The notes under the pieces are model-generated. The model searched no databases and had not been told where the DNA came from. It worked only from the letters and a program-made list of their open reading frames with translations. Shown one piece after another: positions 398 to 44,368 of a DNA stretch of 44,368 nt (within the stretch, counting starts at the first letter, position 1; every line of letters starts with the position of its first letter). Position numbers and translations under genes: made by a program. The stretch is from the IMG/VR virus record IMGVR_UViG_2541047889_000001, one strand, 5' to 3'. The DNA is from a virus. Taxonomy: Duplodnaviria > Heunggongvirae > Uroviricota > Caudoviricetes.

Positions 398-676
398 TCA
401 GCTCCATTCCCGAAGCGGTGTTTCCAGCTCCACGACATAATCAGAGAATACAGAAACATCAAACAAGTCATCAAGAATGCGAATGTTGACAAAATAACCA
501 TCATTCCGGATACAGACAGGTTCTCCCTCTTCTGTTACCCCTGTTTCTGTGTAGGTGAAACCAATTTCATCAACTAACAGTTTATTCTGGAGGTCTTCAT
601 CTTCCGCCCAGCCAAGAGATGACAGGAAGGCCTTAAACTGCAGTTTGTCATGAAACTTCAAAGTTAAATCTTTCAT
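398..676 (-). CDS. Hypothetical acidic protein, translationally coupled to stf (possible fibre accessory or chaperone)
   Basis: 92-aa ORF whose ATG (676..674) overlaps the stf stop TGA (675..673) as ATGA. It occupies the position where lambda has tfa but does not resemble lambda Tfa. Confidence 0.45.
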   Translation of the reverse strand: MKDLTLKFHDKLQFKAFLSSLGWAEDEDLQNKLLVDEIGFTYTETGVTEEGEPVCIRNDGYFVNIRILDDLFDVSVFSDYVVELETPLREWS

Positions 677-2733
677 ACGACCTCTTTTAATTGCCTGTCA
701 TTTAATTCTTTATGCCATATGCGGAAATTGCGAATATGGCCAAACAGATGTCGTTCTCCAGTATTCGTCTGCCCTCCAAATCGGATATTTTTATCAGCGG
801 TCACGCCATTATATTCACAATAAACTTCATTAACCGCTTTACCATTTGTCACCACATGAAAGTGACCATCAGCTTTTGCAATACATCCAAATGTGGTTTT
901 CTCTGCAAATACATCTGTCGCTGCGCTATTAACATACGAGCCTGAAGGGTTTGACAGACTCATATATAACTTACCACTACCTCTGTTGATTGCTGCAATT
1001 GCTGATTGCCCGGTATTGGCTGCTGCTATATCCCACACGCGGGGTGCGGCGTTTGGTGCAATATCCCAGTTTTTATGAATCTCAAGTAAAAAAGTAAATG
1101 GTAACTTATAAAGATTATTTCTGGTGGGGATACTAACCAAATCACTGGCTCTTGTCGTTGCGCTGCCTCCTGAAATAATAAATGATGATACACACGGCCC
1201 ATTCTCTACTTGTGGGGTGGCAAGATAAATATAGTCACCAGATACTGTTGCCCCACCCTGCCCAGGAGAATACTGTATCTGAGAGCCTATTTTTAACTCA
1301 CCATCAATTGCCTGAATCGTTGCCTCTGCAAAAATCCAGCCCGTGGTCTTATCCTTCCTGACTCGTGCCGTAATTCTGCCGGCAGCACCACCTGTCATAC
1401 TAATTTCAAGCGTTTGCGTATCAATGTACGCATCGCCAAGAAAAGTTGTTGCACTACCATCATACTTATCAAACCGTATACGTAACCTTACCTGTCGTTC
1501 TGTTTTAAAACGGCATGAGGTTGTCACGTACTTGTTATCGCCTGAGACATCAACTGACTTTGTTGCAGCAATTGATGCCATATTAATAGCCGAAGTTTGC
1601 CCAACCAGAGAATCGTTGCAGACAAACTTTCCATAAGTAAAACCAAAACTATCCGTCCCGGTTTCGGGCACATCCATGTTTGATGACTTCCCCCAGCTGG
1701 CTGGACTTTCCGAATTGAGCATGTAGTTCGTTCTTTGTCCCTCAATAAGCAGGCCATCACACTCAAATCGCGGCTCATTAATTTCCGCCGTTTTCAGTTC
1801 GCCAGATTTGTTGATATATGTTGCCGTTGATGCGCGACTGAAATTAACCTGTTTATCACTGGCGACCTGAACCACATCGTCACCAATAGCTATTTTTTTA
1901 TAGCCCGGAGAAAAACCCGCAATCATATCCAGTGAATCGTTAAACGGTATCCACACATCAGGCAGCGGCGGCACTATATTCGCACAGGGCTCTGCAGTCA
2001 CTTCCGCTGCGGCTTCTGCGCGGTCTGCCGCCTTTTCAGCTCGTGTCGCTGCCGACAGAGCCTCATCCTTTTTCTGCCCGGCCTTTGTTGCGTCTGCTGC
2101 GGCCTCCCGCGCTTTTGTGGTGGCGACTCCGGCATTTTCAGCGGCTGACTCTGCATTACGGCGGGAAGCCTCTTCACTGTCTGCGGAGGCTTCTTCTGAC
2201 GCACGGGCATTTGTCTCTGAACGTTCTGCCGCTGTTGCTGCGTTTTGTGCGGCTGTTTTTGAAGAAGCTGCCGCTTTCGCGCTGTTACCTGCATTCGTCT
2301 CTGATGTTTTCGCCGCGTTCCTGGACGATGCCGCTGCTGTTTCTGATTTCTTTGCTGCCGCTGCGCTCTGAGAGGCGGCTTCAGCGTTGCGTGCCGCCTC
2401 TTCCACCATCTTTTCAAAACGATACAGTGCCTCCGGACAAACATCATCTTCTGTTGCAGCGCCCAGAAAATCATTCAATGTCCCCGGCTTAGAATCCTCA
2501 TACACGGTGATGGTCCCGGCATGTGAAGGCGGAAAACCTTCAACCAGCAGGGCGACGCTGTACTGGCCATACTCAACATCCATGCTGTAACGTCCGGCTT
2601 CATCCGGATTTTCTGAGGCCACCGTGTTCACCACAACTGTGGTGCTGTTACGTTTTGCTTTCAGCTGGATTGTGCAGTTCTGTACCGGTTTTCCTGTGCC
2701 GTCTTTCAGTACACCTGAAATCTTTACTGCCAT
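673..2733 (-). CDS. stf: Side tail fibre protein: lambda Stf-like N-terminus, Ala-rich shaft, divergent C-terminal domain
   Basis: N-terminus MAVKISGVLKDGTGKPVQNCTIQLKA...YSMDVEYGQYSV matches lambda Stf from memory. Start placed at ATG 2733 (the ORF track begins two codons upstream at a GTG). Confidence 0.8.
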   Translation of the reverse strand: MAVKISGVLKDGTGKPVQNCTIQLKAKRNSTTVVVNTVASENPDEAGRYSMDVEYGQYSVALLVEGFPPSHAGTITVYEDSKPGTLNDFLGAATEDDVCPEALYRFEKMVEEAARNAEAASQSAAAAKKSETAAASSRNAAKTSETNAGNSAKAAASSKTAAQNAATAAERSETNARASEEASADSEEASRRNAESAAENAGVATTKAREAAADATKAGQKKDEALSAATRAEKAADRAEAAAEVTAEPCANIVPPLPDVWIPFNDSLDMIAGFSPGYKKIAIGDDVVQVASDKQVNFSRASTATYINKSGELKTAEINEPRFECDGLLIEGQRTNYMLNSESPASWGKSSNMDVPETGTDSFGFTYGKFVCNDSLVGQTSAINMASIAATKSVDVSGDNKYVTTSCRFKTERQVRLRIRFDKYDGSATTFLGDAYIDTQTLEISMTGGAAGRITARVRKDKTTGWIFAEATIQAIDGELKIGSQIQYSPGQGGATVSGDYIYLATPQVENGPCVSSFIISGGSATTRASDLVSIPTRNNLYKLPFTFLLEIHKNWDIAPNAAPRVWDIAAANTGQSAIAAINRGSGKLYMSLSNPSGSYVNSAATDVFAEKTTFGCIAKADGHFHVVTNGKAVNEVYCEYNGVTADKNIRFGGQTNTGERHLFGHIRNFRIWHKELNDRQLKEVV

Positions 2734-2744
2734 ATTCACCCCAC

Positions 2745-30365: not shown

Positions 30366-31409
30366 ATGAAAATTAACAAGATATTATCATCTGCAACACT
30401 ATTGTATGGTATGTCAATGGCCATGTCGGTCGGGAGTTGTGCAACACCTGTCCAGACTAATCTTCCTGGTTACACCCCGGGTGCAGATATCATTAGTGTT
30501 TCACCGACCAGAAACCAGGTCGATCTCATTGGTGATGTTGTTTATTCCCAGATAAAAGGAACTCGTTCTGTCAGACAGCTTCACATGTCAGTTCTTGTCC
30601 CGCGAACAAATGATTTAAAACCAGCCATTATTTATTATCCCGGCGGCGGATTCATGTCTTCTGAACATGACAAATTTATTGAAATGAGAATGGCTCTGGC
30701 AGAAGCTGGTTTTGTTGTGGCCGCTGTAGAATACAGAACAATTCCTGATACATTTCCAGCACCAGTTGAGGATGGAAAAGCTGCAATACGTTACCTGAGA
30801 GAGCATGCCAGCAATTATGGGATTGATCCTCAAAGAATCGGAGTTCTGGGTGACTCTGCCGGTGGATGGCTTGCCCAGATGATGGGAACTACAAATGGTG
30901 ACAAAACCTTTGATAAAGGTGACTTTCTTCAGCAATCCTCAGATGTTCAGGCAGTTGCCACACTTTATGGGATTTCTGACTTGTTGAATATTGGCGAGGG
31001 GTTCCCTGAATCAGTGCAGGAGGTTCATCGCTCTCCTGCCGTAACCGAAGCCTTAATGATCAATGGCCCTGCATTCAGAAATTTTGCGGGAGCCCCCATC
31101 ACAGCGTCAAAAGAAAAAGCGCTAAACGCCAGTCCAATCGGACATATGAAAGGAGTAAAACCCCCATTTCTTATTATGCATGGTAGCAAAGACACTCTGG
31201 TTTCACCTGAGCAAAGCGCCAAACTATTCAGGATGTTGAAGAAGAACGGTGATAACGCTGAGTACGTGCTGGTAGAAGGGGCCGAGCATGGCGATAATAC
31301 ATGGTATCAGCCAATTATTATAAACAGAGTTGTTGAGTGGTTTACTAAAAACCTGGGAACCCCCATAAAAAACGCTACCCAACAACAAAAAACAAACGCT
31401 GACCTGTAA
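30366..31409 (+). CDS. Lipoprotein alpha/beta-hydrolase-fold esterase/lipase
   Basis: 347 aa; lipoprotein-type signal MKINKILSSATLLYGMSMAMSVGSC; oxyanion-hole motif YYPGGGF and nucleophile elbow GDSAGG. Flanked by AT-rich DNA and opposite in orientation to the surrounding operon. Confidence 0.75.
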   Translation: MKINKILSSATLLYGMSMAMSVGSCATPVQTNLPGYTPGADIISVSPTRNQVDLIGDVVYSQIKGTRSVRQLHMSVLVPRTNDLKPAIIYYPGGGFMSSEHDKFIEMRMALAEAGFVVAAVEYRTIPDTFPAPVEDGKAAIRYLREHASNYGIDPQRIGVLGDSAGGWLAQMMGTTNGDKTFDKGDFLQQSSDVQAVATLYGISDLLNIGEGFPESVQEVHRSPAVTEALMINGPAFRNFAGAPITASKEKALNASPIGHMKGVKPPFLIMHGSKDTLVSPEQSAKLFRMLKKNGDNAEYVLVEGAEHGDNTWYQPIIINRVVEWFTKNLGTPIKNATQQQKTNADL

Positions 31410-31415
31410 AAAGCA

Positions 31416-31433
31416 GCCCGCACTTATGCGGGC
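31416..31433 (+). terminator. Hairpin downstream of the esterase gene (weak terminator)
   Basis: gcccgca-ctta-tgcgggc immediately after the esterase stop; no strong T-tract on the plus strand. Confidence 0.35.
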
Positions 31434-31758
31434 TAACCTATTTCACTCGATTCAAAAGAAATTATTTTTAATGGGGGCGTGACCAGCCTCTCGGTGCTCA
31501 GATACTTAATGAAGTGGAGTGGCATTCTGGCAAGAGGTTAACATCACCTGTTCGCCATAACCAAGCACGTGCACAAAGTTTGTTATCAGTGAATTGTTTT
31601 GTGATTGGGTATTGTTGAGCTACTAGAGCAAGAATGCCAACATCCAGTGACAGTGCCTATAGTAAAACTATAGCTCAGGGCGCTTCGTTCAAGATAGTTA
31701 ATATCATATTAGTTACTTTACTTTCATACCATAGCACGGTTGAAAAAGTGATTATTAC

Positions 31759-33285
31759 TCAAAAATAAACCTCACCATCAACCATATATTTAAGAGTACT
31801 TATCGCCTGCTGGGCGGATATTACTTTCATTAAAGGATAGTGTTTAAAAACAATGCCATTCATAAAATAGATATCACAGGTTTTATTATCTGTATTAATT
31901 ATAATTTTTTCGAATATTTTATAGGCAAGTGTACGACATAGCTCTCGCCCATTTTTACTGGTTAAATCAATAGCATGAAAATCACCAAGTGAACTCACCC
32001 CTTTACTCTTCAAAGTTTTTAATGATACCGAAGCCCTTCGTAATTCCTTATCTAATAGTCTTATTTTCTCTGCTATAGCGGTAACTTCAGGCGCGACAGA
32101 CAATGCAACGATTAAATTATTAATTTTCATCTGAAGCTCAATAATTTTTAACTCTAAAGTTTCATTAGCATCTTTCTTGTTTTCAACTGGTTGAATTTTG
32201 CTACAATTAAAAAGCAATTCATTAATGATATTATAATCAACCAAATCTCTTTTTATTGATGGCCTGTCACATCGATGTAATCTTCTCATCGGACAAACAT
32301 AATAGCCATGCAAACGTCCAGATACCGCATGAACAATCATGGTATTACCACAAGCCTCACACTTCATAACTGTTCGAAGTAGATTTATTAGCATAGGATT
32401 CTTGCTACTATTGCTAATACCAAAAGGTGCCAACCGAATTTCCTGTACAGCGTAAAACAAATCATCTGATATGACTCTGGGATAATAGCCAGCGATTTCA
32501 CTTATCCCTTTCCCTCTTGCACGATATGAAGGTACGCATATACCTATCAGAGCTTTATTCGCTAATAATTTTTCAATTACAGAAGGCCCCCATGCACTTT
32601 CTTTTCCTGAAAAATTTTTTACAGCATGATCATTTAAATACTTAGCTATTGCATTCAATGATCGCCTTTCCATCCTGAGTTTAAAAATTAGCTCAATCGT
32701 TTTCACCCTGTCGGGGTCTGGAATAAAAGCTGTTCTTTTGTCATCCAATGAGAGCCATCTCGGACAAGACGCCGTCATAATCGTGCCTGATTCCAGTGCA
32801 TCCTGCCGTTTTTTCTTCCATGATAATTTAACCCGACTTGACTTTATCTCGCTTTCTTCATTTGCCCTTTGTGCTATAAGTATGGCTTTTATTAATGAAT
32901 ATGGCTCATTCAATGAGTCTATATTATAGACTGTATTATCGCAAAGAGTTATAACATCAATACCGTGATTCAAAATCAATTTCAGACGCTCAATCGCTTC
33001 ACCGACTTTTTCTCTTGAAAGTCTGTCCAGACTTTCAACTAACAATGTAGTCCCTGGCAATATGTAACCATGTTCTATAGCATCTAAAAATTCCGAAAAA
33101 GCTCCTGATTGTGCATGCTTTCCATTGAATGCGCTTAACCCCAAATCTTCATACGTTACGGTATCAAGGTAATAATCACTATTTACCTTTAGCCATTCAG
33201 TAATAAGCCTTCTCTGGCGGTTTAATGAATCACCAGACATCTGACCTGGTGATGAAAATCGCATATATGCTATGGCTTTTTTCAT
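31759..33285 (-). CDS. Large serine recombinase (resolvase/invertase catalytic domain plus recombinase and zinc-ribbon domains), DLP12 YbcK-like
   Basis: 508 aa; N-terminal AIAYMRFSSPGQ...SLNRQRR catalytic-serine motif; Cys-rich CEACGN...YYVCP...HRC region; coiled-coil C-terminus. Flanked by AT-rich DNA. Confidence 0.85.
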   Translation of the reverse strand: MKKAIAYMRFSSPGQMSGDSLNRQRRLITEWLKVNSDYYLDTVTYEDLGLSAFNGKHAQSGAFSEFLDAIEHGYILPGTTLLVESLDRLSREKVGEAIERLKLILNHGIDVITLCDNTVYNIDSLNEPYSLIKAILIAQRANEESEIKSSRVKLSWKKKRQDALESGTIMTASCPRWLSLDDKRTAFIPDPDRVKTIELIFKLRMERRSLNAIAKYLNDHAVKNFSGKESAWGPSVIEKLLANKALIGICVPSYRARGKGISEIAGYYPRVISDDLFYAVQEIRLAPFGISNSSKNPMLINLLRTVMKCEACGNTMIVHAVSGRLHGYYVCPMRRLHRCDRPSIKRDLVDYNIINELLFNCSKIQPVENKKDANETLELKIIELQMKINNLIVALSVAPEVTAIAEKIRLLDKELRRASVSLKTLKSKGVSSLGDFHAIDLTSKNGRELCRTLAYKIFEKIIINTDNKTCDIYFMNGIVFKHYPLMKVISAQQAISTLKYMVDGEVYF

Positions 33286-33540
33286 GGTGACACCTGCTAA
33301 AGTATGCTTTTATAAACCTTAGTGGTGAGATATGATTTTTGTTTAATTTTTATTTAAAAAGACAATTAAGGTCACATTATCTTGAATATACAACAATAAT
33401 CGTATTGCAATTTTCTTACACCATGATCTTGAAAGATCAAAAGAATGAATAAAAACTAAAGACATTAACAAAAAGCATAAAACGAGGCCCATACAAATAT
33501 ACGAACCTCCATATTTTAGTCGTTTAAAAATAAATTATTT

Positions 33541-33873
33541 TTAATGTGGTGTGCTTCGTGACAATAAATTAATAACCAACACACCGGCACAAATCAACAT
33601 CATGCCTATAATGGCTGGCAGGTCCAACCGTTGGCCGAAAAATCCCCATGATAGTAAGCTAATCAGGACAATACCGACTCCTGACCAGATAGCATAAGCA
33701 ATCCCTGTAGGTATATAAGCCAGCGTCTGAGCTAATAACCAGAATGATGCACAATAACAAATAATTGTACCAACAGATGGCCATAACCGTGTAAAACCTT
33801 CTGAAAACTTCATTAAGGTTGTACCAATGACCTCTGCAAGTATTGCACCACCAAGATAAATATAAGGGTTCAT
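33541..33873 (-). CDS. emrE: Small multidrug resistance efflux protein EmrE
   Basis: Start at ATG 33873 (MNPYIYLGGAILAEVIGTTLMKFSEGFTRLWPSVGTIICYCASFWLLAQTLAYIPTGIAYAIWSG...) with AGGAAAG upstream; near-identical to E. coli EmrE from memory. Confidence 0.92.
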   Translation of the reverse strand: MNPYIYLGGAILAEVIGTTLMKFSEGFTRLWPSVGTIICYCASFWLLAQTLAYIPTGIAYAIWSGVGIVLISLLSWGFFGQRLDLPAIIGMMLICAGVLVINLLSRSTPH

Positions 33874-33940
33874 AGCATATTCTTTCCTGTTCAAACTGGA
33901 GAGAATTGTACTACAGTTTGAACTCAACTCACCTGTTTCA

Positions 33941-34243
33941 TCATTGTGTACCCATTGATGTTCTTTTATATACCCTCAATACCCGTTTCATCGCGGCACT
34001 CTGGCGACACTCCTTAAAAATCAAATTCGCGCTCACCTTTCCTTCCCGTTCTTCTCTGGTAGCGAACCGATAATACACCGTTCGCCAGACCTTACCATCA
34101 ACGACCAGGATTCCTGCCCGCGCCATTTTAGCCACAGCCTGATTTATGCTGGTTACGGTTGCGCCTGTTACCGCGGCAACGTCCTGTGCACAGAAGCTCT
34201 TATGCGTCCCCAGGTAATGAATAATTGCCTCTTTGCCCGTCAT
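33941..34243 (-). CDS. ren: Ren protein
   Basis: 100 aa, MTGKEAIIHYLGTHKSFCAQDVAAVTGATVTSINQAVAKMARAGILVVDGKVWRTVYYRFATREEREGK...; matches lambda Ren from memory. ATG overlaps the P stop (ATGA). Confidence 0.88.
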   Translation of the reverse strand: MTGKEAIIHYLGTHKSFCAQDVAAVTGATVTSINQAVAKMARAGILVVDGKVWRTVYYRFATREEREGKVSANLIFKECRQSAAMKRVLRVYKRTSMGTQ

Positions 34244-34941
34244 ACACTTGCTCCTTTCAGTCCGAACTTAGCTTTGATTTCTGCGATCTTCGCCAGAGCC
34301 TGTGCACGATTTAGAGGTCTACCGCCCATGACAGGAAGTTGTTTTACTGGTTCAGGGATCGCCTCACCACGGTTAATTCTCGCAGTCATATGGACAAGCT
34401 CATCTGCGGCCTTACGGCGTAATTCCGCATCAGTAAGCGCATTGGCCCGCATGTTCTGATACAGGTTGGTAACCAGCCAGTAGTGCGCGTTTGATTTCCA
34501 CGGATAAGACTCCGCATCCGGATACAGGCCTCGCTTCCGGCAATACTCGTAAACCATATCAACCAGCTCGCTGACGTTTGGCAGTCCGGCGATAACGGAT
34601 GCTTCTTCCCGGCACCATGCAACAAACTGCCCGGGTGATGGCAGAAATGGTCGATTCTGCCGACGGGCTACGCGCATTCCTGCGTTAACCTGTTCCATTG
34701 TGGTGATCCCGTTTTCCCGGAAAGCCAGAACCCACTGGCGGCGGATTTCATTCAGTTCGTTCTGGTCACGGTTAGCCAGACTCGCCGGGAAAGTTGCCAG
34801 TAACTGGCTGAACACACCGTTGATGATCTGCGCTACCTGCTGTACCTGCGGCTTTTCGTCGTACTGTTCCGGCATGTTGTTGGCGATCCGGCGCATCTGC
34901 TCACGGTCAAAGTTAACCATCTGTGCGGCGATGTTTTTCAT
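34240..34941 (-). CDS. P: Replication protein P (DnaB helicase loader)
   Basis: 233 aa, MKNIAAQMVNFDREQMRRIANNMPEQYDEKPQVQQVAQIINGVFSQLLATFPASLANRDQNE...; matches lambda gpP from memory. Confidence 0.95.
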   Translation of the reverse strand: MKNIAAQMVNFDREQMRRIANNMPEQYDEKPQVQQVAQIINGVFSQLLATFPASLANRDQNELNEIRRQWVLAFRENGITTMEQVNAGMRVARRQNRPFLPSPGQFVAWCREEASVIAGLPNVSELVDMVYEYCRKRGLYPDAESYPWKSNAHYWLVTNLYQNMRANALTDAELRRKAADELVHMTARINRGEAIPEPVKQLPVMGGRPLNRAQALAKIAEIKAKFGLKGASV

Positions 34942-35915
34942 AAATCCACCCCGTAAATCCAGTCAGTGTTTGTCAGGTCGAGTTTTGATTTTCCGGCTGT
35001 CACGCCAGCCTGTTGCTTGTTACGGTTGATTTCGAGTTGAGTCCACTTGTCGCGGAGTTTGGCCGGACTCAGCACGTTACCGGACCAGAAGTTGTCCTGG
35101 CATGCCCAGCGGAACAGCACGCACATGTCGCGGTGGTTACGTCCGTCACGTTCACGCATCAGGCGGATATCGTTAGCCCACCCTGCAAAATTTGGTTTTC
35201 TGGCTGATGGCGCGATGGTCTTCACCATGTCAAACATCCACTCTGCGGCGGTCAGGTCTTCTGCTGTCCCCCACTTGCTGCCGCTCTGAATTGCAGCATC
35301 CGGTTTCACCACAGGAAGATCGTTTTCTGGCTGGTCAGAGGATTCGTCAGAATTCTCGGACGAAAAAGGTTTTATATTGTCTTTTGTTAGTTTGTCTTTT
35401 GTGTTTACCTGATTCGGGTAAACGCCTTTACCTGATTTGGGTAAACTTTTCTTACCTGATTCAGGTAAATTTACCTCTTTCAGGTAAACTTTATTTTTCT
35501 TACCTGATTCAGGTAAATTTACCTCTTTCAGGTAAACTTTATTTTTCTTACCTGATTCGGGTAATGTTGACCATTCACTGACCACATTATTAATGCCGAT
35601 ATTCCGCCCGCTCTGAATAAAAATCCCACGCTTTACCAGAACACTTTTTGCAGCAGAACACTTGTGCGGCAATATCCCGGTCAACTCGGAAAGTTGCTCG
35701 TTGCTCACCCAATCCAGTTTTTTATTAAAGCCATATGTTTTGCGCATGACAGCCAGGAAGACCAGAAGCTGGTGCTGTGTTAATCCGGCCAGCATCACAG
35801 CTTCCAGCAACTCATTTGCAATGCGCGTATAACCATCATCGAGATCTGCCACGCGCGGCTCCTTTTGTGCCACATCCGGCACTGGAAAATTGAATATCTC
35901 AGCAGTGTTTGCCAT
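34938..35915 (-). CDS. O: Replication initiator O: non-lambda N-terminal iteron-binding domain, lambda-like C-terminal domain
   Basis: Start placed at ATG 35915 (MANTAEIFNFPVPD...) with a strong GGGAGG upstream; an alternative start is ATG 36005, which overlaps the upstream stop. The C-terminal half matches lambda O from memory; the ori iterons lie inside the gene. Confidence 0.88.
   Translation of the reverse strand: MANTAEIFNFPVPDVAQKEPRVADLDDGYTRIANELLEAVMLAGLTQHQLLVFLAVMRKTYGFNKKLDWVSNEQLSELTGILPHKCSAAKSVLVKRGIFIQSGRNIGINNVVSEWSTLPESGKKNKVYLKEVNLPESGKKNKVYLKEVNLPESGKKSLPKSGKGVYPNQVNTKDKLTKDNIKPFSSENSDESSDQPENDLPVVKPDAAIQSGSKWGTAEDLTAAEWMFDMVKTIAPSARKPNFAGWANDIRLMRERDGRNHRDMCVLFRWACQDNFWSGNVLSPAKLRDKWTQLEINRNKQQAGVTAGKSKLDLTNTDWIYGVDL
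35405..35565. repeat. Replication origin iterons (seven 18-bp TTACCTGATTCRGGTAAA-like repeats) within O, including a 48-bp perfect tandem duplication
   Basis: Repeats at 35405, 35428, 35452, 35471, 35500, 35519 and 35548, five with clear dyad symmetry (TACCTGA / TCAGGTA). Units 35452..35499 and 35500..35547 are identical. An AT-rich tract follows at about 35335..35404. Confidence 0.8.
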
Positions 35916-36001
35916 AATTCCTCCCGCAATGAGTGTGTTACGATTTGCACCTGAAAGTCGGTTCTGTTCGCGCAGACCGGCTTTCGCCATTTCCGAACCT
36001 G

Positions 36002-36547
36002 TCATATTGCCCCCAGCATGGTGGTGACCATCGCCATCAGTGGACCAGCCAGATCCGGGTCCACACGAAACATCGACACAATGCCTTCACTCATCTCCTT
36101 CAGTTTCTGGTGGCGTGGTGCGTTGAGAATGACAGCCTGTTTTGCCTCACTGAGTTCCTTTTCCATTTCAGCCAGCCGAGCCATGAAGCTATCCTGCTCA
36201 ACCAGGTGGCCGCGATATTCCAGCGGTAGTACCGCCAGAATTGCCGGGGTCAGTTCACGCACGTTATTTCGGTATTTTTCAGAATCGAATTTGTTATCGA
36301 GGAAGCGGAACAGCTTCTGGCGTGCACGGCTGACATCATCAGGAAAATCGATGGTGCCGCCGCCCTGCTCCCGATACTCATTCACAATGAGTGCGGCAAC
36401 AACATCCTGATTATCTGCAGCCGACCAGGCGCGAACGGCATCACGGATTTTTTCGTGGCCTGGCGCCTGTTTTGTTTGAGAACGATTTATCACCGCAGTC
36501 GGGCTAAATCCGCTAGTCTGTTGGTATGTAAGTGGTTGCATAGTCAT
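36002..36547 (-). CDS. YdaT-like protein in the cII position (Rac-type regulator)
   Basis: 181 aa; segments NEYREQGGGTIDFP and RNNVRELTPAILAVLPLEYRGHL resemble Rac YdaT as remembered. Stop overlaps the upstream ATG at 36005. Confidence 0.55.
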   Translation of the reverse strand: MTMQPLTYQQTSGFSPTAVINRSQTKQAPGHEKIRDAVRAWSAADNQDVVAALIVNEYREQGGGTIDFPDDVSRARQKLFRFLDNKFDSEKYRNNVRELTPAILAVLPLEYRGHLVEQDSFMARLAEMEKELSEAKQAVILNAPRHQKLKEMSEGIVSMFRVDPDLAGPLMAMVTTMLGAI

Positions 36548-36571
36548 TGCCTTATCAGTTAACGCCGCAGA

Positions 36572-36799
36572 TTAGGCGGCAGAATTACTCGCGTTAAACA
36601 ATGGTGCGAGGTCGGGACGAATATCTGCTGGTTTAATCTTTCCACCAGTGGCTGAGACAATTTTCATTACATAGCGGGCATCAATTCCGCCACCGTGTAG
36701 CCAACGCCAAACAGTGGGCTGGGCTACACCGCATAGATCTGCCAGTCGTTTTTGACTACCTGTAATACTGATTGCGAGTTGAATGGTTTGATTTGTCAT
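36572..36799 (-). CDS. cro: Cro-like small HTH regulator (YdaS-type)
   Basis: 75 aa, MTNQTIQLAISITGSQKRLADLCGVAQPTVWRWLHGG...; ATG at 36799 with AGGA upstream. First gene of the rightward early operon, divergent from the repressor gene. Confidence 0.7.
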   Translation of the reverse strand: MTNQTIQLAISITGSQKRLADLCGVAQPTVWRWLHGGGIDARYVMKIVSATGGKIKPADIRPDLAPLFNASNSAA

Positions 36800-36909
36800 T
36801 ATTAATTCCTATTGGTATTACAATGAATAAATAATAGCAATGCGTATTAATCATAACAATAGCAAAACGTGTTTTGACCATCAATACGCAAGCGTATAAA
36901 TTAAAACTT
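36800..36909. promoter_or_regulatory. Right operator/promoter region: divergent pR (minus) and pRM-like (plus) promoters with three operator-like sites
   Basis: Minus-strand pR: -35 TTGTTA (36859..36854), 17-bp spacer, -10 TATTAT (36836..36831). Plus-strand pRM-like: -35 TTGACC (36874..36879), -10 TATAAA (36895..36900), no Shine-Dalgarno before the cI ATG at 36910. Operator-like AATA-N8-TATT sites at 36832..36849, 36857..36873 and 36881..36898. Confidence 0.6.
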
Positions 36910-37602
36910 ATGAAAAAAGAAACTCTTGCTGATCGCTTAAACCTAGCGATGGAACAATCTGGAATGTCTCAAGGCGCTCTTGCAAAGGCGTCTGGCGTAG
37001 CTCAACCCACAATCTGGAGACTGACAAGCGGCAACGCGCGCGGCTCAACAAAAATTGTTGAAATAGCTAATGCATTGGGTGTTCGAACAGAGTGGCTCTC
37101 ATCAGGCATAGGCCCGATGAGAAATGACGGTCAACAATTAGGGAAGCCTACTGCCAACCATCCCAAATACTTCAAGATTGACGTTCTTGATATAGAAGTG
37201 AGTGCCGGGCCGGGAGTCATCAACCGTGAGTTTGTAGAAGTTCTACGCTCGGTTGAGTACTCGTTTGACGATGCTCGTCACATGTTCGATGGTAGGAAGG
37301 CAGAAAATATCCGCATCATTAACGTACGCGGTGACAGCATGTCAGGAACGATTGAACCTGGTGATCTTCTATTCGTTGATATCACGGTTAAATCTTTCGA
37401 CGGTGATGGTATCTATGCGTTTCTGTACGACGACACAGCCCATGTAAAGCGCCTGCAAATGATGAAGGATAAGCTGCTGGTTATCTCTGATAACAAAAGC
37501 TACTCACCGTGGGACCCGATCGAGAAAGATGAGATGAACCGGGTATTTATCTTCGGGAAAGTTATTGGGAGCATGCCGCAGACGTATAGGAAGCATGGAT
37601 AG
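36910..37602 (+). CDS. cI: CI-like prophage repressor (N-terminal HTH, C-terminal S24 LexA-like peptidase domain)
   Basis: Start at ATG 36910 (MKKETLADRLNLAMEQSGMSQGALAKASGVAQPTIWRL...); C-terminal VRGDSMSGTIEPGDLLFVD and a downstream Lys (HVKRL) form the Ser-Lys dyad; Ala-Gly cleavage-type site EVSAGPG. The track ORF starts at an upstream TTG. Confidence 0.85.
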   Translation: MKKETLADRLNLAMEQSGMSQGALAKASGVAQPTIWRLTSGNARGSTKIVEIANALGVRTEWLSSGIGPMRNDGQQLGKPTANHPKYFKIDVLDIEVSAGPGVINREFVEVLRSVEYSFDDARHMFDGRKAENIRIINVRGDSMSGTIEPGDLLFVDITVKSFDGDGIYAFLYDDTAHVKRLQMMKDKLLVISDNKSYSPWDPIEKDEMNRVFIFGKVIGSMPQTYRKHG

Positions 37603-37682
37603 TACCAATTAAAAATTATCAACCGGGCATTGTGCTCATTCAGTAAAACAACTTAATTATTCATTTTAGAATGGAGAACTTA

Positions 37683-38744
37683 ATGGATACTTTAAAATAT
37701 GAGAAATTCTCTGATTTTGATCACAATGACCCATTTTTTGACTCTTTAAAAAAAGATTATAAAGAGTTTCCTCTTTGGTTAGAAAAAAAAGCCAGAGAAG
37801 GAGAATCAGCTTATGTGCTCTATGATGACAAGCATAAAATCGAAGGTTTTATGTATCTAAAAGAAAATGATGATGCAAATGACATTAATCCAGCGCTCCC
37901 ACCAGGACGTCATCTAAAGATAGGAACATTCAAATTTGAATCTAAAGGCACCCTTCGCGGACAACGATTTCTAAAAAAAGCGTTTGACCATGCATTTTCA
38001 TCAAAATCTGATGATATTTATGTTACTGTTTTCGACAAACACGTCCATCTAATAAAACTTTTCCAAACGTACGGATTTTACATTCATGGTGAAAAAGAAA
38101 CACATAACGGGAAAGAGTTTGTATATGCGAGGTCTTTGCATGAGCCTTATGGTGATATTTTATTAGATTACCCTCGAATAATGACATCAAGGGCCAACAA
38201 ATATTTACTGGCGATTTATCCCGAATATCACACTAGACTATTCCCTGATTCAAAACTTGTAAATGAATCACCAGATATTGTCAAAGATATATCCCATGCT
38301 AACAGCATTCATAAAATTTACATATGTGGAATGCGTTCTGTGATGGGAATGAAAAGAGGAGATATCATTGTCATCTATAGAACCGGAGACAAAAAAGGGC
38401 CAGCTCGCTATCGTTCTGTAGCCAGTACATTATGTGTAGTTGAGAGCGTAAAAAATATTTCTGAATTTTTAAGCGAAGATAGTTTTGTAGACTATTGTAT
38501 TCGTTTTAGCGTATTTTCTGAAGATGAACTCAGAAAAATCTATAAAGAACGTCGATACCCTTTCATTATAAGATTCACATACAATCTGTCTTTGTCAAAG
38601 AGACCCAATCGTGCTATTTTAATAGATCATGTGGGGCTAAATGGTTCGCGTGCATTCCGATGGAGTCACTTTAAACTCACAAATGAGCAGTTCTTAAAGA
38701 TCATCGAGTTAGGCAAGATAAATGAAAGTTTTATTATCCATTAA
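37683..38744 (+). CDS. Hypothetical two-domain protein: N-terminal GNAT-like acetyltransferase fold, C-terminal PUA-like/unknown domain
   Basis: AT-rich gene immediately downstream of cI. ATG 37683 is preceded by GGAG; the track starts at ATG 37671, which has no Shine-Dalgarno. GNAT-like motifs LRGQRFLKKAF and LIKLFQTYGFYIHGE. Domain assignment is by eye only. Confidence 0.6.
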   Translation: MDTLKYEKFSDFDHNDPFFDSLKKDYKEFPLWLEKKAREGESAYVLYDDKHKIEGFMYLKENDDANDINPALPPGRHLKIGTFKFESKGTLRGQRFLKKAFDHAFSSKSDDIYVTVFDKHVHLIKLFQTYGFYIHGEKETHNGKEFVYARSLHEPYGDILLDYPRIMTSRANKYLLAIYPEYHTRLFPDSKLVNESPDIVKDISHANSIHKIYICGMRSVMGMKRGDIIVIYRTGDKKGPARYRSVASTLCVVESVKNISEFLSEDSFVDYCIRFSVFSEDELRKIYKERRYPFIIRFTYNLSLSKRPNRAILIDHVGLNGSRAFRWSHFKLTNEQFLKIIELGKINESFIIH

Positions 38745-39099
38745 GCCTGAGTTTGCAGAAAAAATATTGAACGGAACAAAGCGGTTCGAGTTTCGTAAAG
38801 GTATATTCAAAAATCCGCAAATTAGCACCGTTGTTATTTATGCCACGATGCCATTAGGTAAAGTTGTTGGTCAATTCCGTATTGAATCAATACTAAGTGA
38901 CGAACCGGAATCTCTTTGGAAAAAGACGGAAAAACACGCAGGTATTTCTAAGCAATTTTATGACTCATATTATTCAGGTAGAGAAAAGGCCTACGCAATA
39001 AAAATTGGTGAAGTGGAAAGATATAAAGAACCAATTCCTATCTCTGCTCTAGGTAGTAATATTAAGCCACCACAATCATATCTTTACCTACCTGCGTAA
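38722..39099 (+). CDS. ASCH-domain protein (PUA-like)
   Basis: 125 aa, MKVLLSIKPEFAEKILNGTKRFEFRKG...; canonical ASCH N-terminal pattern. Overlaps the upstream gene by 23 nt; AT-rich. Confidence 0.65.
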   Translation: MKVLLSIKPEFAEKILNGTKRFEFRKGIFKNPQISTVVIYATMPLGKVVGQFRIESILSDEPESLWKKTEKHAGISKQFYDSYYSGREKAYAIKIGEVERYKEPIPISALGSNIKPPQSYLYLPA

Positions 39100-39103
39100 G
39101 AAT

Positions 39104-39130
39104 CCCGGCCACCGTGCCGGGTTTTCTTTT
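39104..39130 (+). terminator. Rho-independent terminator after the cI-proximal cassette
   Basis: cccggc-caccgt-gccggg followed by ttttctttt on the plus strand, 5 nt after the ASCH gene stop. Confidence 0.7.
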
Positions 39131-39252
39131 GTCCCCTCATCACACAAACCGTTCGAAAAACCACCACATCCTCCCTTCAGTTATCGCTATGCGATACAAG
39201 TCACAAAATTAATTCTTTTTGCTATCAAACAGTTAATATCAAAACACATCAA

Positions 39253-39297
39253 TCAATAGCAATAAGTATTGATACAGCCAATAGCAATAGCTATTAT
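39253..39297 (+). promoter_or_regulatory. pL-like promoter with two operator-like sites (OL)
   Basis: -35 TTGATA (39269..39274), 17-bp spacer, -10 TATTAT (39292..39297). Operator-like TCAATAGCAATAAGTATTGA (39253..39272) and CAATAGCAATAGCTATTA (39279..39296) share the AATA-N8-TATT pattern with the OR sites. Confidence 0.6.
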
Positions 39298-39370
39298 CAC
39301 CATGTCGCAACAACACAACGATACGGCAATCACCTGATTCACCGTTGCGATGACCGCTTAGATCCGCAGC

Positions 39371-39781
39371 TTGAATTTCAGCAGGCTCCGGGGAGTGCGA
39401 GGGGTGAAGCGGACGCGTGAACGTCGGTGTGACCAGCTGAAATCAACTCAACACCTCATACCTCAGTCGCTTCAACGAGGCGGCTTAGTTATGACAACCG
39501 GCGGCCATCCACCGCCTGAATACGCGCAGAAGTCTCTATATGTTCAGCAGCCCAGCTTACGGGCAGGAGTTTTTATGGTTCATCAACATTACGGAACGCA
39601 GACCGTTAATCGCGGTGCGGTCATGCCAGGAATGCTGGTCAAACACAAAGATGGTACCTGGACTGCATCAGCTAATTTACGCGGACGGCTTTATCTGCAT
39701 CGCGGCATCGAGCGCACTTATACCCGTGATTTGCTCGTGGAAGTTTTTCTCGACGGACGCGGCAACGGCCTGAATCACTAA
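39371..39781 (+). CDS. Possible N-like antiterminator (Arg-rich N-terminal motif); start uncertain
   Basis: First ORF after the pL-like promoter. If translated from TTG 39371 or GTG 39404 the N-terminus contains [16 protein letters not shown], resembling the Arg-rich motif of N proteins. The first ATG is at 39491 ([11 protein letters not shown]...). Confidence 0.35.
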
Positions 39782-39856
39782 TCCCCTTTCCTGTTTACCT
39801 AATCAGCCCGGCATTTCGCAGGCGATATTTTCACAGCCATTTTCAGGAGTTCAGCC

Positions 39857-40153
39857 ATGAACGCTTATTACATTCAGGATCGTCTTGAGGCTCAAAGCTG
39901 GGCGCGTCACTACCAGCAGATCGCCCGTGAAGAGAAAGAGGCAGAACTGGCAGACGACATGGAAAAAGGTCTTCCACAGCACCTGTTTGAATCACTCTGC
40001 ATCGATCATTTGCAACGCTGCGGGGCCAACAAAAAAGCCATTACCCGTGCGTTTGATGACGATGTTGAGTTTCAGGAGCGCATGGCAGAACACATCCGGT
40101 ACATGGTTGAAACCATTGCTCACCACCATGTTGATATTGATTCAGAGGTATAA
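39857..40153 (+). CDS. gam: Gam, host RecBCD inhibitor (short form)
   Basis: 98 aa, [54 protein letters not shown]...; matches the C-terminal 98 aa of lambda Gam from memory. Confidence 0.9.
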
Positions 40154-41621: not shown

Positions 41622-41800
41622 CGCATCCTCACGATAATATCCGGGTAGGCGCGATCACTTTCGTCTACTCCGTTACAAAGCGAGGCTGGGTATTTCCCGG
41701 CCTTTCTGTTATCCAAAATCCACTGAAAGCCCAGCGGCTGGCTGAGGAGATAAATAATAAACGGGGGGCTGTATGCACAAAGCATCTCCCGTTGAGTTAA
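41612..41800 (+). CDS. Small hypothetical protein in the pL operon (62 aa)
   Basis: Overlaps the exo stop; [30 protein letters not shown].... Same position as small lambda early-left ORFs. Confidence 0.45.
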
Positions 41801-41964
41801 GAACGAGTATCGAGATGGCACATAGCCTCGCTCAAATTGGAGTCAGGTTTGTGCCAATACCAGTAGAAACAGACGAAGAATTTCATACGTTAGCCACATC
41901 CCTTTCACAAAAGCTGGAAATGATGGTGGCGAAAGCAGAAGCAGATGAGAGAGACCAGGTATGA
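41773..41964 (+). CDS. Small hypothetical protein in the pL operon (63 aa)
   Basis: [44 protein letters not shown]...; its stop overlaps the next ATG (ATGA). Confidence 0.45.
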   Translation: MHKASPVELRTSIEMAHSLAQIGVRFVPIPVETDEEFHTLATSLSQKLEMMVAKAEADERDQV

Positions 41965-42044
41965 CAACCACTGAATGCATTTTTCTGGCAGCGGGCTTCA
42001 TATTCTGTGTGCTTATGCTTGCCGACATGGGACTTGCTCAATGA
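41961..42044 (+). CDS. Possible 27-aa hydrophobic micropeptide
   Basis: Not in the ORF track. MTTTECIFLAAGFIFCVLMLADMGLAQ; ATGA overlaps on both sides link it to the neighbouring small ORFs. Confidence 0.3.
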   Translation: MTTTECIFLAAGFIFCVLMLADMGLAQ

Positions 42045-42256
42045 CACCTCAGCAAGAAAACGCCCTTCGCAGTATTGCCCGTCAGGCTAATTATGAAATC
42101 AAAAAAGCCAGACAGCAGTTTCCGGATAAAAACGTCGATGACATTTGCCGTAGCGTACTGAAGAAGCACCGCGAAACGGTAACGCTGATGGGATTCACAC
42201 CGACTCATTTAAGCCTGGCGATCGGCATGTTAAACGGCGTCTTTAAGGAACGGTGA
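42041..42256 (+). CDS. Small hypothetical protein in the pL operon (71 aa)
   Basis: Start at ATG 42041 (MTPQQENALRSIARQANYEIKKARQQFPDKNVDDICRSVLKKHRET...). The track ORF starts 22 codons upstream. Confidence 0.45.
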   Translation: MTPQQENALRSIARQANYEIKKARQQFPDKNVDDICRSVLKKHRETVTLMGFTPTHLSLAIGMLNGVFKER

Positions 42257-42354
42257 ACATGAAAAATAAAATCATCATGGAGCTACAGGCTCCTTTTTTA
42301 TTATTCGCATTCACCCTCAAGCGTATTAACCAACAATTCAGGGATTAATGAAAG

Positions 42355-42573
42355 ATGGCAGACATCATTGATTCAGCATCAGAAATTGAAGAATTACAGC
42401 GCAACACAGCAATAAAAATGCGCCGCCTGAACCACCAGGCTATATCTGCCACTCATTGTTGTGAGTGTGGCGATCCGATAGATGAACGAAGACGCCTGGC
42501 CGTTCAGGGTTGTCGGACTTGTGCAAGTTGCCAGGAGGAGATCGAACTTAAGAACAAACAATGGGGACTGTGA
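42355..42573 (+). CDS. TraR/DksA-family C4 zinc-finger protein
   Basis: 72 aa with CxxC...CxxC (CCECGDPIDERRRLAVQGCRTCASC) after an acidic helical N-terminus, the TraR/DksA pattern. Confidence 0.6.
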   Translation: MADIIDSASEIEELQRNTAIKMRRLNHQAISATHCCECGDPIDERRRLAVQGCRTCASCQEEIELKNKQWGL

Positions 42574-42620
42574 TGGCCTCAAAGCAGCAAATTTCAACAT
42601 CGTCCAACTGAGGTGTAAAA

Positions 42621-42860
42621 ATGTTCAGAATCATTTTTCCTAACACCTGGTACGTCGACCACCACGGCACTCCCTGCAAAATCCTGCGTTCTACCCACAA
42701 CAAAGTTCACTACATCCGAAAAGGCAGAACATGTATCGCCAGCATGTTCCGCTTTAATCATGACTTTGAACCTGTGAATAAAGCTGATGCAGATCGGATA
42801 GCCGAAGAGATCGATACAGCAGAACACATTAAGAAGTTACGTGCCATACGCAGGAAATAG
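42621..42860 (+). CDS. Hypothetical protein (79 aa)
   Basis: MFRIIFPNTWYVDHHGTPCKILRSTHNKVHYIRKGRTC...; no family recognised. Confidence 0.4.
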   Translation: MFRIIFPNTWYVDHHGTPCKILRSTHNKVHYIRKGRTCIASMFRFNHDFEPVNKADADRIAEEIDTAEHIKKLRAIRRK

Positions 42861-42999
42861 AAAAATTGATAAATTCAATACTGCATTTCTCAGCATTAAA
42901 TTTATCTCTATGACCAGTCAAGAGATGTACCTGCCATGAGCTTAATATCATGTCAGATATATCGGTCACAAACTCCCTCAGTAGCTAAGAGGAGGACAA

Positions 43000-43236
43000 A
43001 TGTCTCGACTAATCACTTTACAGGACTGGGCTAAAGAAGAATTTGGGGACTTAGCACCAAGTGAGCGAGTTCTGAAAAAATACGCGCAAGGGAAAATGAT
43101 GGCCCCACCCGCTATAAAAGTTGGTCGCTACTGGATGATTGACCGAAATTCCCGTTTTGTAGGAACGCTTGCAGAACCGCAACTCCCAATAAACGCAAAC
43201 CCAAAACTCCAACGGATAATCGCTGATGGCTGCTAG
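43000..43236 (+). CDS. xis: Excisionase-like protein
   Basis: 78 aa; ATG preceded by AGGAGG; directly upstream of and overlapping int. Pattern LITLQDWAKEEF...VGRYWMIDRNSRF resembles lambda Xis (LTLQEWNARQ...). Confidence 0.6.
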   Translation: MSRLITLQDWAKEEFGDLAPSERVLKKYAQGKMMAPPAIKVGRYWMIDRNSRFVGTLAEPQLPINANPKLQRIIADGC

Positions 43237-44368
43237 ACCCCGATCTCACAAAATCTCTATACCCAATTTATATTGCAAATTAGATAAGCGAACCGGAAAG
43301 GTATATTGGCAATACAAACATCCACTATCCGGTCGTTTTCATAGCTTAGGAACTGATGAGAATGAAGCAAAACAAGTTGCTACTGAAGCAAATACCATTA
43401 TTGCTGAACAACGTACCCGACAAATATTAAGCGTCAATGAGCGTCTGGAAAGAATGAAAGGCAGGCGCTCAGACATTACGGTGACAGAATGGCTTGATAA
43501 ATATATTTCTATCCAGGAGGACAGGCTGCAACATAATGAACTAAGACCCAACTCCTATCGGCAAAAAGGCAAACCCATTCGTCTTTTCCGTGAGCATTGT
43601 GGAATGCAACACCTCAAGGATATTACCGCACTTGATATTGCCGAAATAATTGATGCTGTAAAGGCTGAAGGTCATAACAGGATGGCGCAAGTCGTGAGAA
43701 TGGTGTTAATCGACGTCTTCAAAGAAGCACAACACGCAGGACATGTTCCGCCAGGATTTAACCCAGCGCAGGCAACAAAACAACCGCGAAATCGAGTAAA
43801 CCGCCAAAGATTATCACTGCCCGAATGGCAGGCAATATTTGACAGCGTAAGCAGACGGCAGCCCTATTTAAAATGCGGGATGCTACTTGCTCTTGTCACT
43901 GGACAACGTTTAGGCGATATCTGCAATTTGAAATTCTCTGATATCTGGGACGACATGTTGCACATTACTCAGGAAAAAACCGGTTCAAAACTTGCTATTC
44001 CGCTTAACCTGAAATGCGATGCTCTGAATATTACCCTTCGTGAAGTTATATCTCAGTGCAGGGATGCTGTTGTTAGTAAATATCTGGTCCATTACCGTCA
44101 CACAACCTCTCAAGCAAACAGAGGAGACCAGGTTTCTGCGAATACTCTGACAACGGCTTTTAAAAAGGCCAGGGAAAAATGTGGCATAAAATGGGAGCAA
44201 GGAACTGCGCCCACATTTCATGAGCAGCGATCTCTGTCAGAACGGTTATATCGGGAACAGGGTCTGGATACGCAAAAGTTGTTAGGCCATAAATCCAGAA
44301 AAATGACCGACCGATACAATGATGATCGTGGTAAAGACTGGATTATCGTAGATATCAAAACAGCATAG
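43226..44368 (+). CDS. int: Tyrosine-type site-specific integrase
   Basis: 380 aa; C-terminal catalytic region with ALVTGQRLGDI, HEQRSLSERLY and GHKSRKMTDRY. The stop codon TAG is the last three bases of the window. Confidence 0.9.
   Translation: MAARPRSHKISIPNLYCKLDKRTGKVYWQYKHPLSGRFHSLGTDENEAKQVATEANTIIAEQRTRQILSVNERLERMKGRRSDITVTEWLDKYISIQEDRLQHNELRPNSYRQKGKPIRLFREHCGMQHLKDITALDIAEIIDAVKAEGHNRMAQVVRMVLIDVFKEAQHAGHVPPGFNPAQATKQPRNRVNRQRLSLPEWQAIFDSVSRRQPYLKCGMLLALVTGQRLGDICNLKFSDIWDDMLHITQEKTGSKLAIPLNLKCDALNITLREVISQCRDAVVSKYLVHYRHTTSQANRGDQVSANTLTTAFKKAREKCGIKWEQGTAPTFHEQRSLSERLYREQGLDTQKLLGHKSRKMTDRYNDDRGKDWIIVDIKTA

Follow-up and report, generated by a model that had tools for sequence, protein, structure and literature searches.

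The window (the whole 44,368 nt stretch of DNA analyzed here, an IMG/VR virus record) carries on its minus strand gene O, which encodes a replication initiator (bp 34938-35915). From the start codon that aligns with that of λ O (MANTAEIF), the protein is 325 amino acids long, and its residues 21-115 (numbered from the start at 35915) match the Pfam family Phage_rep_O with an E value of 8e-34. RefSeq records a longer, 355 amino acid form (WP_077770645.1) that starts at the ATG at bp 36005 (34938-36005, minus strand) and overlaps the stop codon of the ydaT-like gene; the ATG at 35915 is favored by the λ O alignment and by a GGAGG five bases upstream, and both forms are present among the members of the protein's cluster, as 339 and 309 amino acids. 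A 129 amino acid plus-strand open reading frame that crosses the repeats described below (35192-35581) was set aside, since the minus strand here is the Pfam-supported O gene. The next gene downstream of O is P (34240-34941, minus strand; Pfam Phage_lambda_P, E value 5e-62), which encodes the helicase loader that is the partner of the O C-terminal domain.

The O protein is 63% identical to that of λ overall, but the two ends differ greatly in this respect: identity is 48% over the N-terminal 116 residues and 95% over the C-terminal 145. This agrees with a preliminary description of the locus, made from the sequence, in which the N-terminal DNA-binding domain was considered not to be of the λ type and the repeats to differ accordingly from those of λ. 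The repeat region is the gap between the two λ-aligned parts. It encodes approximately residues 117-176, and the λ-like C-terminal part begins at about residue 181, so that the array lies inside an O-family gene between the regions for the N-terminal DNA-binding and C-terminal P-binding domains. Residues 117-200 of this linker are 77% polar, charged, Gly or Pro, and this composition, together with the λ literature (PMC6022878), suggests that the linker is flexible. Sequence searches found no relative of O in the PDB, and the available O homologs are more than 97% identical.

The element is a λ-like Escherichia coli prophage. Upstream of O lie YdaT-like and YdaS-like genes, the latter in the position of cro, and a divergent S24 repressor gene. 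The products at the cII and cro positions (36002-36799, minus strand) are thus YdaT-like (181 amino acids) and YdaS-like (75 amino acids) proteins and not λ-type CII and Cro. Beside the CI-like repressor gene, at the position of rexAB in λ, are two plus-strand genes (37671-39099) that match the PADLOC candidate defense system PDC-M11, A (357 amino acids) with an E value of 2e-133 and B (125 amino acids, with an ASCH domain) with an E value of 7e-52. The interval that separates the replication genes from the nin region (30366-33927) contains cargo, namely emrE (an SMR efflux pump), a ybcK large serine recombinase gene and an alpha/beta hydrolase gene (BD-FAE). A near-identical prophage is present in strain FDAARGOS_1372 (locus L129), where it adjoins icd; iss, an ompC-like porin gene and a lom-like gene are further cargo of that element, which borders on sitD. 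Its tail-fiber gene (L129 bp 41746-43450, corresponding approximately to window 900-2700) is marked in the annotation as incomplete, without a C-terminus; the counterpart in the window is a 688 amino acid open reading frame (673-2739, minus strand).

Within O, window bp 35405-35564 contain seven copies of a 17 bp core, TTACC-N7-GGTAA. These are the only exact occurrences of the core in the whole window, and when up to three mismatches are allowed the pattern gives 11 strand-matches, none of them outside the array, as against 0.07 predicted from shuffled sequences. Iteron 1 (TTACCTGATTCGGGTAA, 35405-35421) adjoins the AT-rich region and has nine of ten symmetric pairs in a 21 bp frame; it is followed by iteron 2 (TTACCTGATTTGGGTAA, 35428-35444; a core match), iteron 3 (TTACCTGATTCAGGTAA, 35452-35468) and iteron 4 (TTACCTCTTTCAGGTAA, 35471-35487). 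Iterons 5 (35500-35516) and 6 (35519-35535) are exact repeats of 3 and 4, respectively, and are found in no relative, and iteron 7 (35548-35564), the most distant from the AT-rich region, corresponds to the fifth iteron in the common allele discussed below. The start-to-start distances are 23, 24, 19, 29, 19 and 29 bp. Seven repeats had been noticed in the preliminary description, and they stand far above chance, but it saw clear dyad symmetry in five of them. The outer 5 + 5 bp arms are in fact perfect in every copy, so all seven are dyad-symmetric, with seven to nine of the ten possible pairs matched per iteron in the 21 bp frame. The array is thus a tandem series of iterons of about 18 bp with hyphenated dyad symmetry, as in λ, whose O gene has four annotated iterons (the number the preliminary description had given), although the λ sequence is ATCCCTC-N5-GAGGGAT.

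Read along the O sense strand, the array is followed directly by the sequence CACAAAAGACAAACTAACAAAAGACAATATAAAACC... (35403 down to 35363) and then by a palindrome. The AT-rich segment (35363-35403) has a G+C content of about 25% (25% for bp 35360-35399), and we presume that it is the DNA-unwinding element. It aligns with λ bp 39120-39160 and with the corresponding segments of Salmonella phage SEN34 and Klebsiella phage KO-TP1. The palindrome (35343-35364) is an inverted repeat around an EcoRI site, TTCGTCAGAATTCTCGGACGAA, and aligns with the palindrome to the right of the λ AT-rich region; segment and palindrome together align base-for-base with the part of the λ origin to the right of ITN4 (λ 39120-39180). 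The earlier suggestion of a replication origin inside O is well borne out by this arrangement: an iteron array in the linker-coding part of the gene, an AT-rich segment of about 40 bp and palindrome aligned with those of λ, and a P-type helicase loader gene next downstream.

The λ origin consists of four 18 bp iterons and a 38 bp high-AT region (λ 39034-39160), and O dimers bind each iteron to build an O-some that destabilizes the AT-rich DNA (PMC3349717, PMC6022878). By analogy, dimers of the O N-terminal domain would bind each TTACC-N7-GGTAA iteron here and build an O-some that would stress and open the adjacent segment at 35363-35403, and the λ-like C-terminal domain would recruit P with the host DnaB helicase. 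The binding of O to these iterons and the firing of the origin are in this way extrapolated from λ. The locus has the lambdoid origin layout with a different cassette of iteron and DNA-binding domain.

Part of the array is an exact tandem duplication. Tandem Repeats Finder reports a period of 48, 2.5 copies and 98% matches here, and the exactly periodic stretch is the 112 nt from 35447 to 35558, which comprises two 48 bp units (35447-35494 and 35495-35542) and a further 16 nt, TTTTCTTACCTGATTC. This 16 nt sequence is a direct repeat that bounds the unit and is present at 35447-35462, 35495-35510 and 35543-35558, which is why the periodicity continues to 35558. An exact duplication with units at 35452-35499 and 35500-35547 had been described previously; that is a valid alternative phase of the same repeat. 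As was also recognized then, the duplication is in frame. It adds the residues LPESGKKNKVYLKEVN, which are found twice in tandem in the translation, to the linker of the Phage_rep_O protein; 48 bp is 16 codons, so the O reading frame is kept. The additional pair of iterons is inserted after iteron 4 and before the last one, and the four AT-proximal iterons are therefore unchanged. The 48 bp amount to about 4.6 helical turns, which puts the last iteron in a different helical phase from the rest.

This type of origin is very common. The cassette is carried by about 2,390 of 5,426 complete E. coli genomes (∼44%) and by 15 phage records; a 751 bp query finds at least 80% coverage in 2,244 of the 5,426 genomes and in 15 phage records, which include 4A7, Lambda_4C10, 1W, 3W, Perceval and the PhiR series. 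In all 15 phage records and in the 60 E. coli genomes listed of the 2,244, the matched span is 703 bp versus the window's 751, 48 bp less. Among the 116 IMG/VR loci that have both flanks, 114 have a 114 nt array of five iterons and two have four. In this comparison with relatives, which the preliminary description had proposed, the usual copy number of this origin type is therefore five and not four. The commonest five-iteron allele (45 loci) is exactly the window array minus one 48 bp unit. In the two four-iteron alleles an iteron and a spacer are missing: L031 lacks iteron 3 (a 24 nt deletion) and L123 lacks iteron 1 (a 23 nt deletion). As 23 is not a multiple of three, O would be frameshifted in L123, and that prophage may be replication-defective.

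Outside this group, KO-TP1 shares the iteron type of the window; four of its copies are good and a fifth is degenerate. Salmonella phage SEN34 and phage D2 are partial relatives by the 751 bp query, but they were rejected as having the same iteron type because their repeats differ; SEN34 has the same AT-rich segment but TTAGC-N7-GCTAA repeats, and D2 has λ-type iterons. These two phages and the contrast in identity between the two ends of O point to the swapping of such cassettes among phages. Phage 82 has five iterons, and 1981 work by Moore and colleagues reportedly dealt with the origins of phages 82 and φ80; no phage 82 record is among the full-length phage matches to the 751 bp query.

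The seven-iteron allele was sought elsewhere with a 36 nt query across the duplication junction (window 35486-35521), of which the single-copy form shares fewer than 28 consecutive bases; the query was checked locally on the window and on a single-copy locus, and the positive control worked. It has no full-length match in the 5,426 complete E. coli genomes and is absent from 50,697 phage records, as well as from IMG/VR, the JGI metagenomes and the GTDB species representatives. Four partial E. coli matches (query positions 8-36) start inside the junction and are probably single-copy arrays with a C-to-T change in a spacer; one of the four, EC7, spans the single-copy 703 bp. A longer, 68 nt query had been dropped for the E. 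coli genomes since two offset pieces were joined to 100% coverage and it did not discriminate; its sole match of at least 99% identity, H101, has the single-copy form of the array, in which the last iteron is mutated. The exact protein WP_077770645.1 is found on one contig only (KE701581.1, in the scaffold-level assembly GCA_000460195.1), from which the window derives, and the 16 residues are missing from other proteins in its cluster of 7,825.

The closest relatives tell the same story. When one unit is removed from window bp 31000-40000, the complete genome of FDAARGOS_1372 shows no differences over 8,953 bp, and strain NRG 857C differs at two positions; against the 44 kb window, FDAARGOS_1372 aligns in two pieces that are about 99.8-99.96% identical. 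The absence of the junction from everything searched and the identity with FDAARGOS_1372 indicate a private and very recent event or, less likely, an assembly error, and they strongly support the earlier view that the duplication may be recent.

We infer that the duplication is a private, very recent product of slippage between the 16 nt direct repeats rather than an error of assembly. In a five-iteron ancestor, TTTTCTTACCTGATTC would be present twice, 48 nt apart, once at iteron 3 and once at the last iteron, each time comprising a spacer and the first arm of the iteron. Mispairing of slipped strands during replication, or unequal exchange, between these two 16 nt repeats would duplicate iterons 3 and 4, raising the iteron count to seven and repeating 16 residues of the polar O linker in frame. 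The additional pair would then lie on the AT-distal side, and the four iterons nearest the unwinding element would retain the ancestral arrangement. Reciprocal events involving other pairs of iterons would account for the two four-iteron alleles, and easy reversion of the duplication is expected. A lambdoid origin with such a private and recent slippage duplication of iterons 3 and 4 is, as a whole, the best explanation of the region, and we assign it a probability of roughly 80%.

The alternative that survives best is that the duplication is an artefact, the real genome having five iterons and a short-read assembler having passed around the repeat once too often. The allele is known from one scaffold-level assembly and from none of the five collections searched, and the surrounding 9 kb are identical to those of a finished five-iteron genome; the exactly periodic 112 nt are probably at least as long as the typical short reads of that time. 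Graph assemblers, on the other hand, usually collapse tandem repeats and do not expand them. In addition, the window is without Ns or gaps, natural variants in iteron number exist at the same repeats (the four-iteron alleles of L031 and L123), and the boundaries fit textbook slippage between 16 nt direct repeats. An artefact thus seems unlikely, although it deserves more weight than the other alternatives.

A real duplication could also be adaptive. As has been proposed for the two extra iterons of the Stx phages, the AT-distal iterons might raise the local concentration of O, stabilize the O-some or titrate O, and so alter replication or induction. Iteron number can matter, since the extra iterons of the Stx phage P27 are needed for plasmid establishment (PMC7466680) and ectopic iterons inhibit λ replication (PMC3349717). 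Quite apart from any adaptive role, the linker is not wholly inert in λ, which tells against a duplication with no effect: complementation survives small in-frame deletions in the AT-rich part of λ O but is lost when a 24 bp in-frame deletion removes ITN4 (PMC6022878), and a 16-residue insertion could therefore affect O. Against an adaptive role, the allele shows no sign of spread, being found in a single genome out of the roughly 2,390 that have such an origin, and there is no divergence between the two copies or from the nearest relative; it has the look of a new, unselected mutation. We consider adaptation improbable; the slippage duplication is likely to be neutral or slightly harmful, slippage as the mechanism and the absence of a phenotype both being inferred. 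The related proposition that the seven-iteron allele is real and represents iteron-number evolution in progress, measurably altering O-some assembly or the control of prophage replication, has in our estimation only a slim chance, about one in ten.

The repeats themselves are conserved as DNA. Four iterons start at codon position 1 and are translated as LPESGK or LPKSGK, and three start at codon position 3 and are translated as VYLKEVN or VYPNQVN; one DNA motif is thus read in two codon phases, and it is therefore the DNA and not the peptide that is conserved. In the 114 five-iteron IMG/VR arrays, common polymorphisms (at least 5%) occupy four of 14 free spacer columns and none of 51 free iteron columns, the count being restricted to columns that are not fixed by the search pattern. 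The use of two codon phases and the confinement of common polymorphisms to the spacers are the marks of constraint on DNA sites. The idea that the repeats are kept for the K/S/G/P-rich linker peptide that they encode, and that the origin lies elsewhere, draws on the polar composition of residues 117-200 and their visibly repetitive character as protein, but it is almost certainly wrong, given that the two phases give unrelated peptides, that dyad symmetry, a DNA-level property, is present in every copy, that common polymorphisms avoid the cores, and that the array lies exactly at the position of the λ iterons beside a homologous AT-rich segment.

The locus is thus an ordinary lambdoid origin, and the duplication, a new allele of a common but little-described cassette, is a real but minor finding. 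The comparison documents a replication module that is very widespread among E. coli prophages, that follows the λ plan with five TTACC-N7-GGTAA iterons, and in which iteron number drifts by slippage to give alleles with four, five and seven copies; this has little significance beyond housekeeping. If the allele is real, it and FDAARGOS_1372 form a natural isogenic pair with which AT-distal iterons and a longer O linker could be tested, and the effect of such changes on origin firing has so far been addressed only for the Stx phages.

With the λ origin the present one shares its location in the linker-coding part of O, where the λ iterons occupy the same place, its tandem 17-19 bp iterons with hyphenated dyad symmetry and a spacing of about 19-29 bp, the aligned AT-rich segment and palindrome, the nearly identical (95%) O C-terminal domain and the adjacent λ-type P gene. 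It differs in the iteron sequence and the N-terminal domain of O (48% identical), and in having five iterons as the norm for its type, and seven here, versus four in λ. The plasmid iteron origins of pSC101, F and RK2 similarly have tandem initiator-binding repeats beside an AT-rich unwinding element, but those lie outside the initiator gene, use other Rep families and serve a handcuffing-based copy control. Five-iteron origins with this type of O, as in the E. coli prophages and phage 4A7, are identical in sequence apart from the 48 bp unit, and their O proteins are 16 residues shorter than that of the window.

The closest precedent for the expanded array comes from the Stx phages. Phages 933W and P27 have six iterons versus the four of λ, and their O proteins have 13 additional residues; binding is efficient only at the four AT-proximal iterons, the AT-distal extras being weakly bound, and a higher local concentration of O or stabilization of the O-some has been proposed as the role of the two extra iterons (PMC7466680). 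Three iterons are sufficient in λ according to Moore et al. (1981), as that work is cited in PMC7466680. It is therefore well established that lambdoid origins vary in iteron number and that the length of O varies with it. In both cases two extra iterons lie on the AT-distal side and linker residues are added in frame (13 there and 16 here), and, on the less likely reading of iteron-number evolution in progress, a single slippage step would enlarge the origin and lengthen the initiator linker at once, the same sort of event as the one behind the Stx six-iteron origins. The extra iterons of the window are not a fixed feature of its lineage, as the junction is absent from the five collections searched and the near-identical prophages have five iterons. 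In 933W and P27, in contrast, six iterons are standard, the copies have diverged slightly and the origins have been functionally studied, whereas here the iterons are of another type and the expansion is an exact duplicate known from a single genome.
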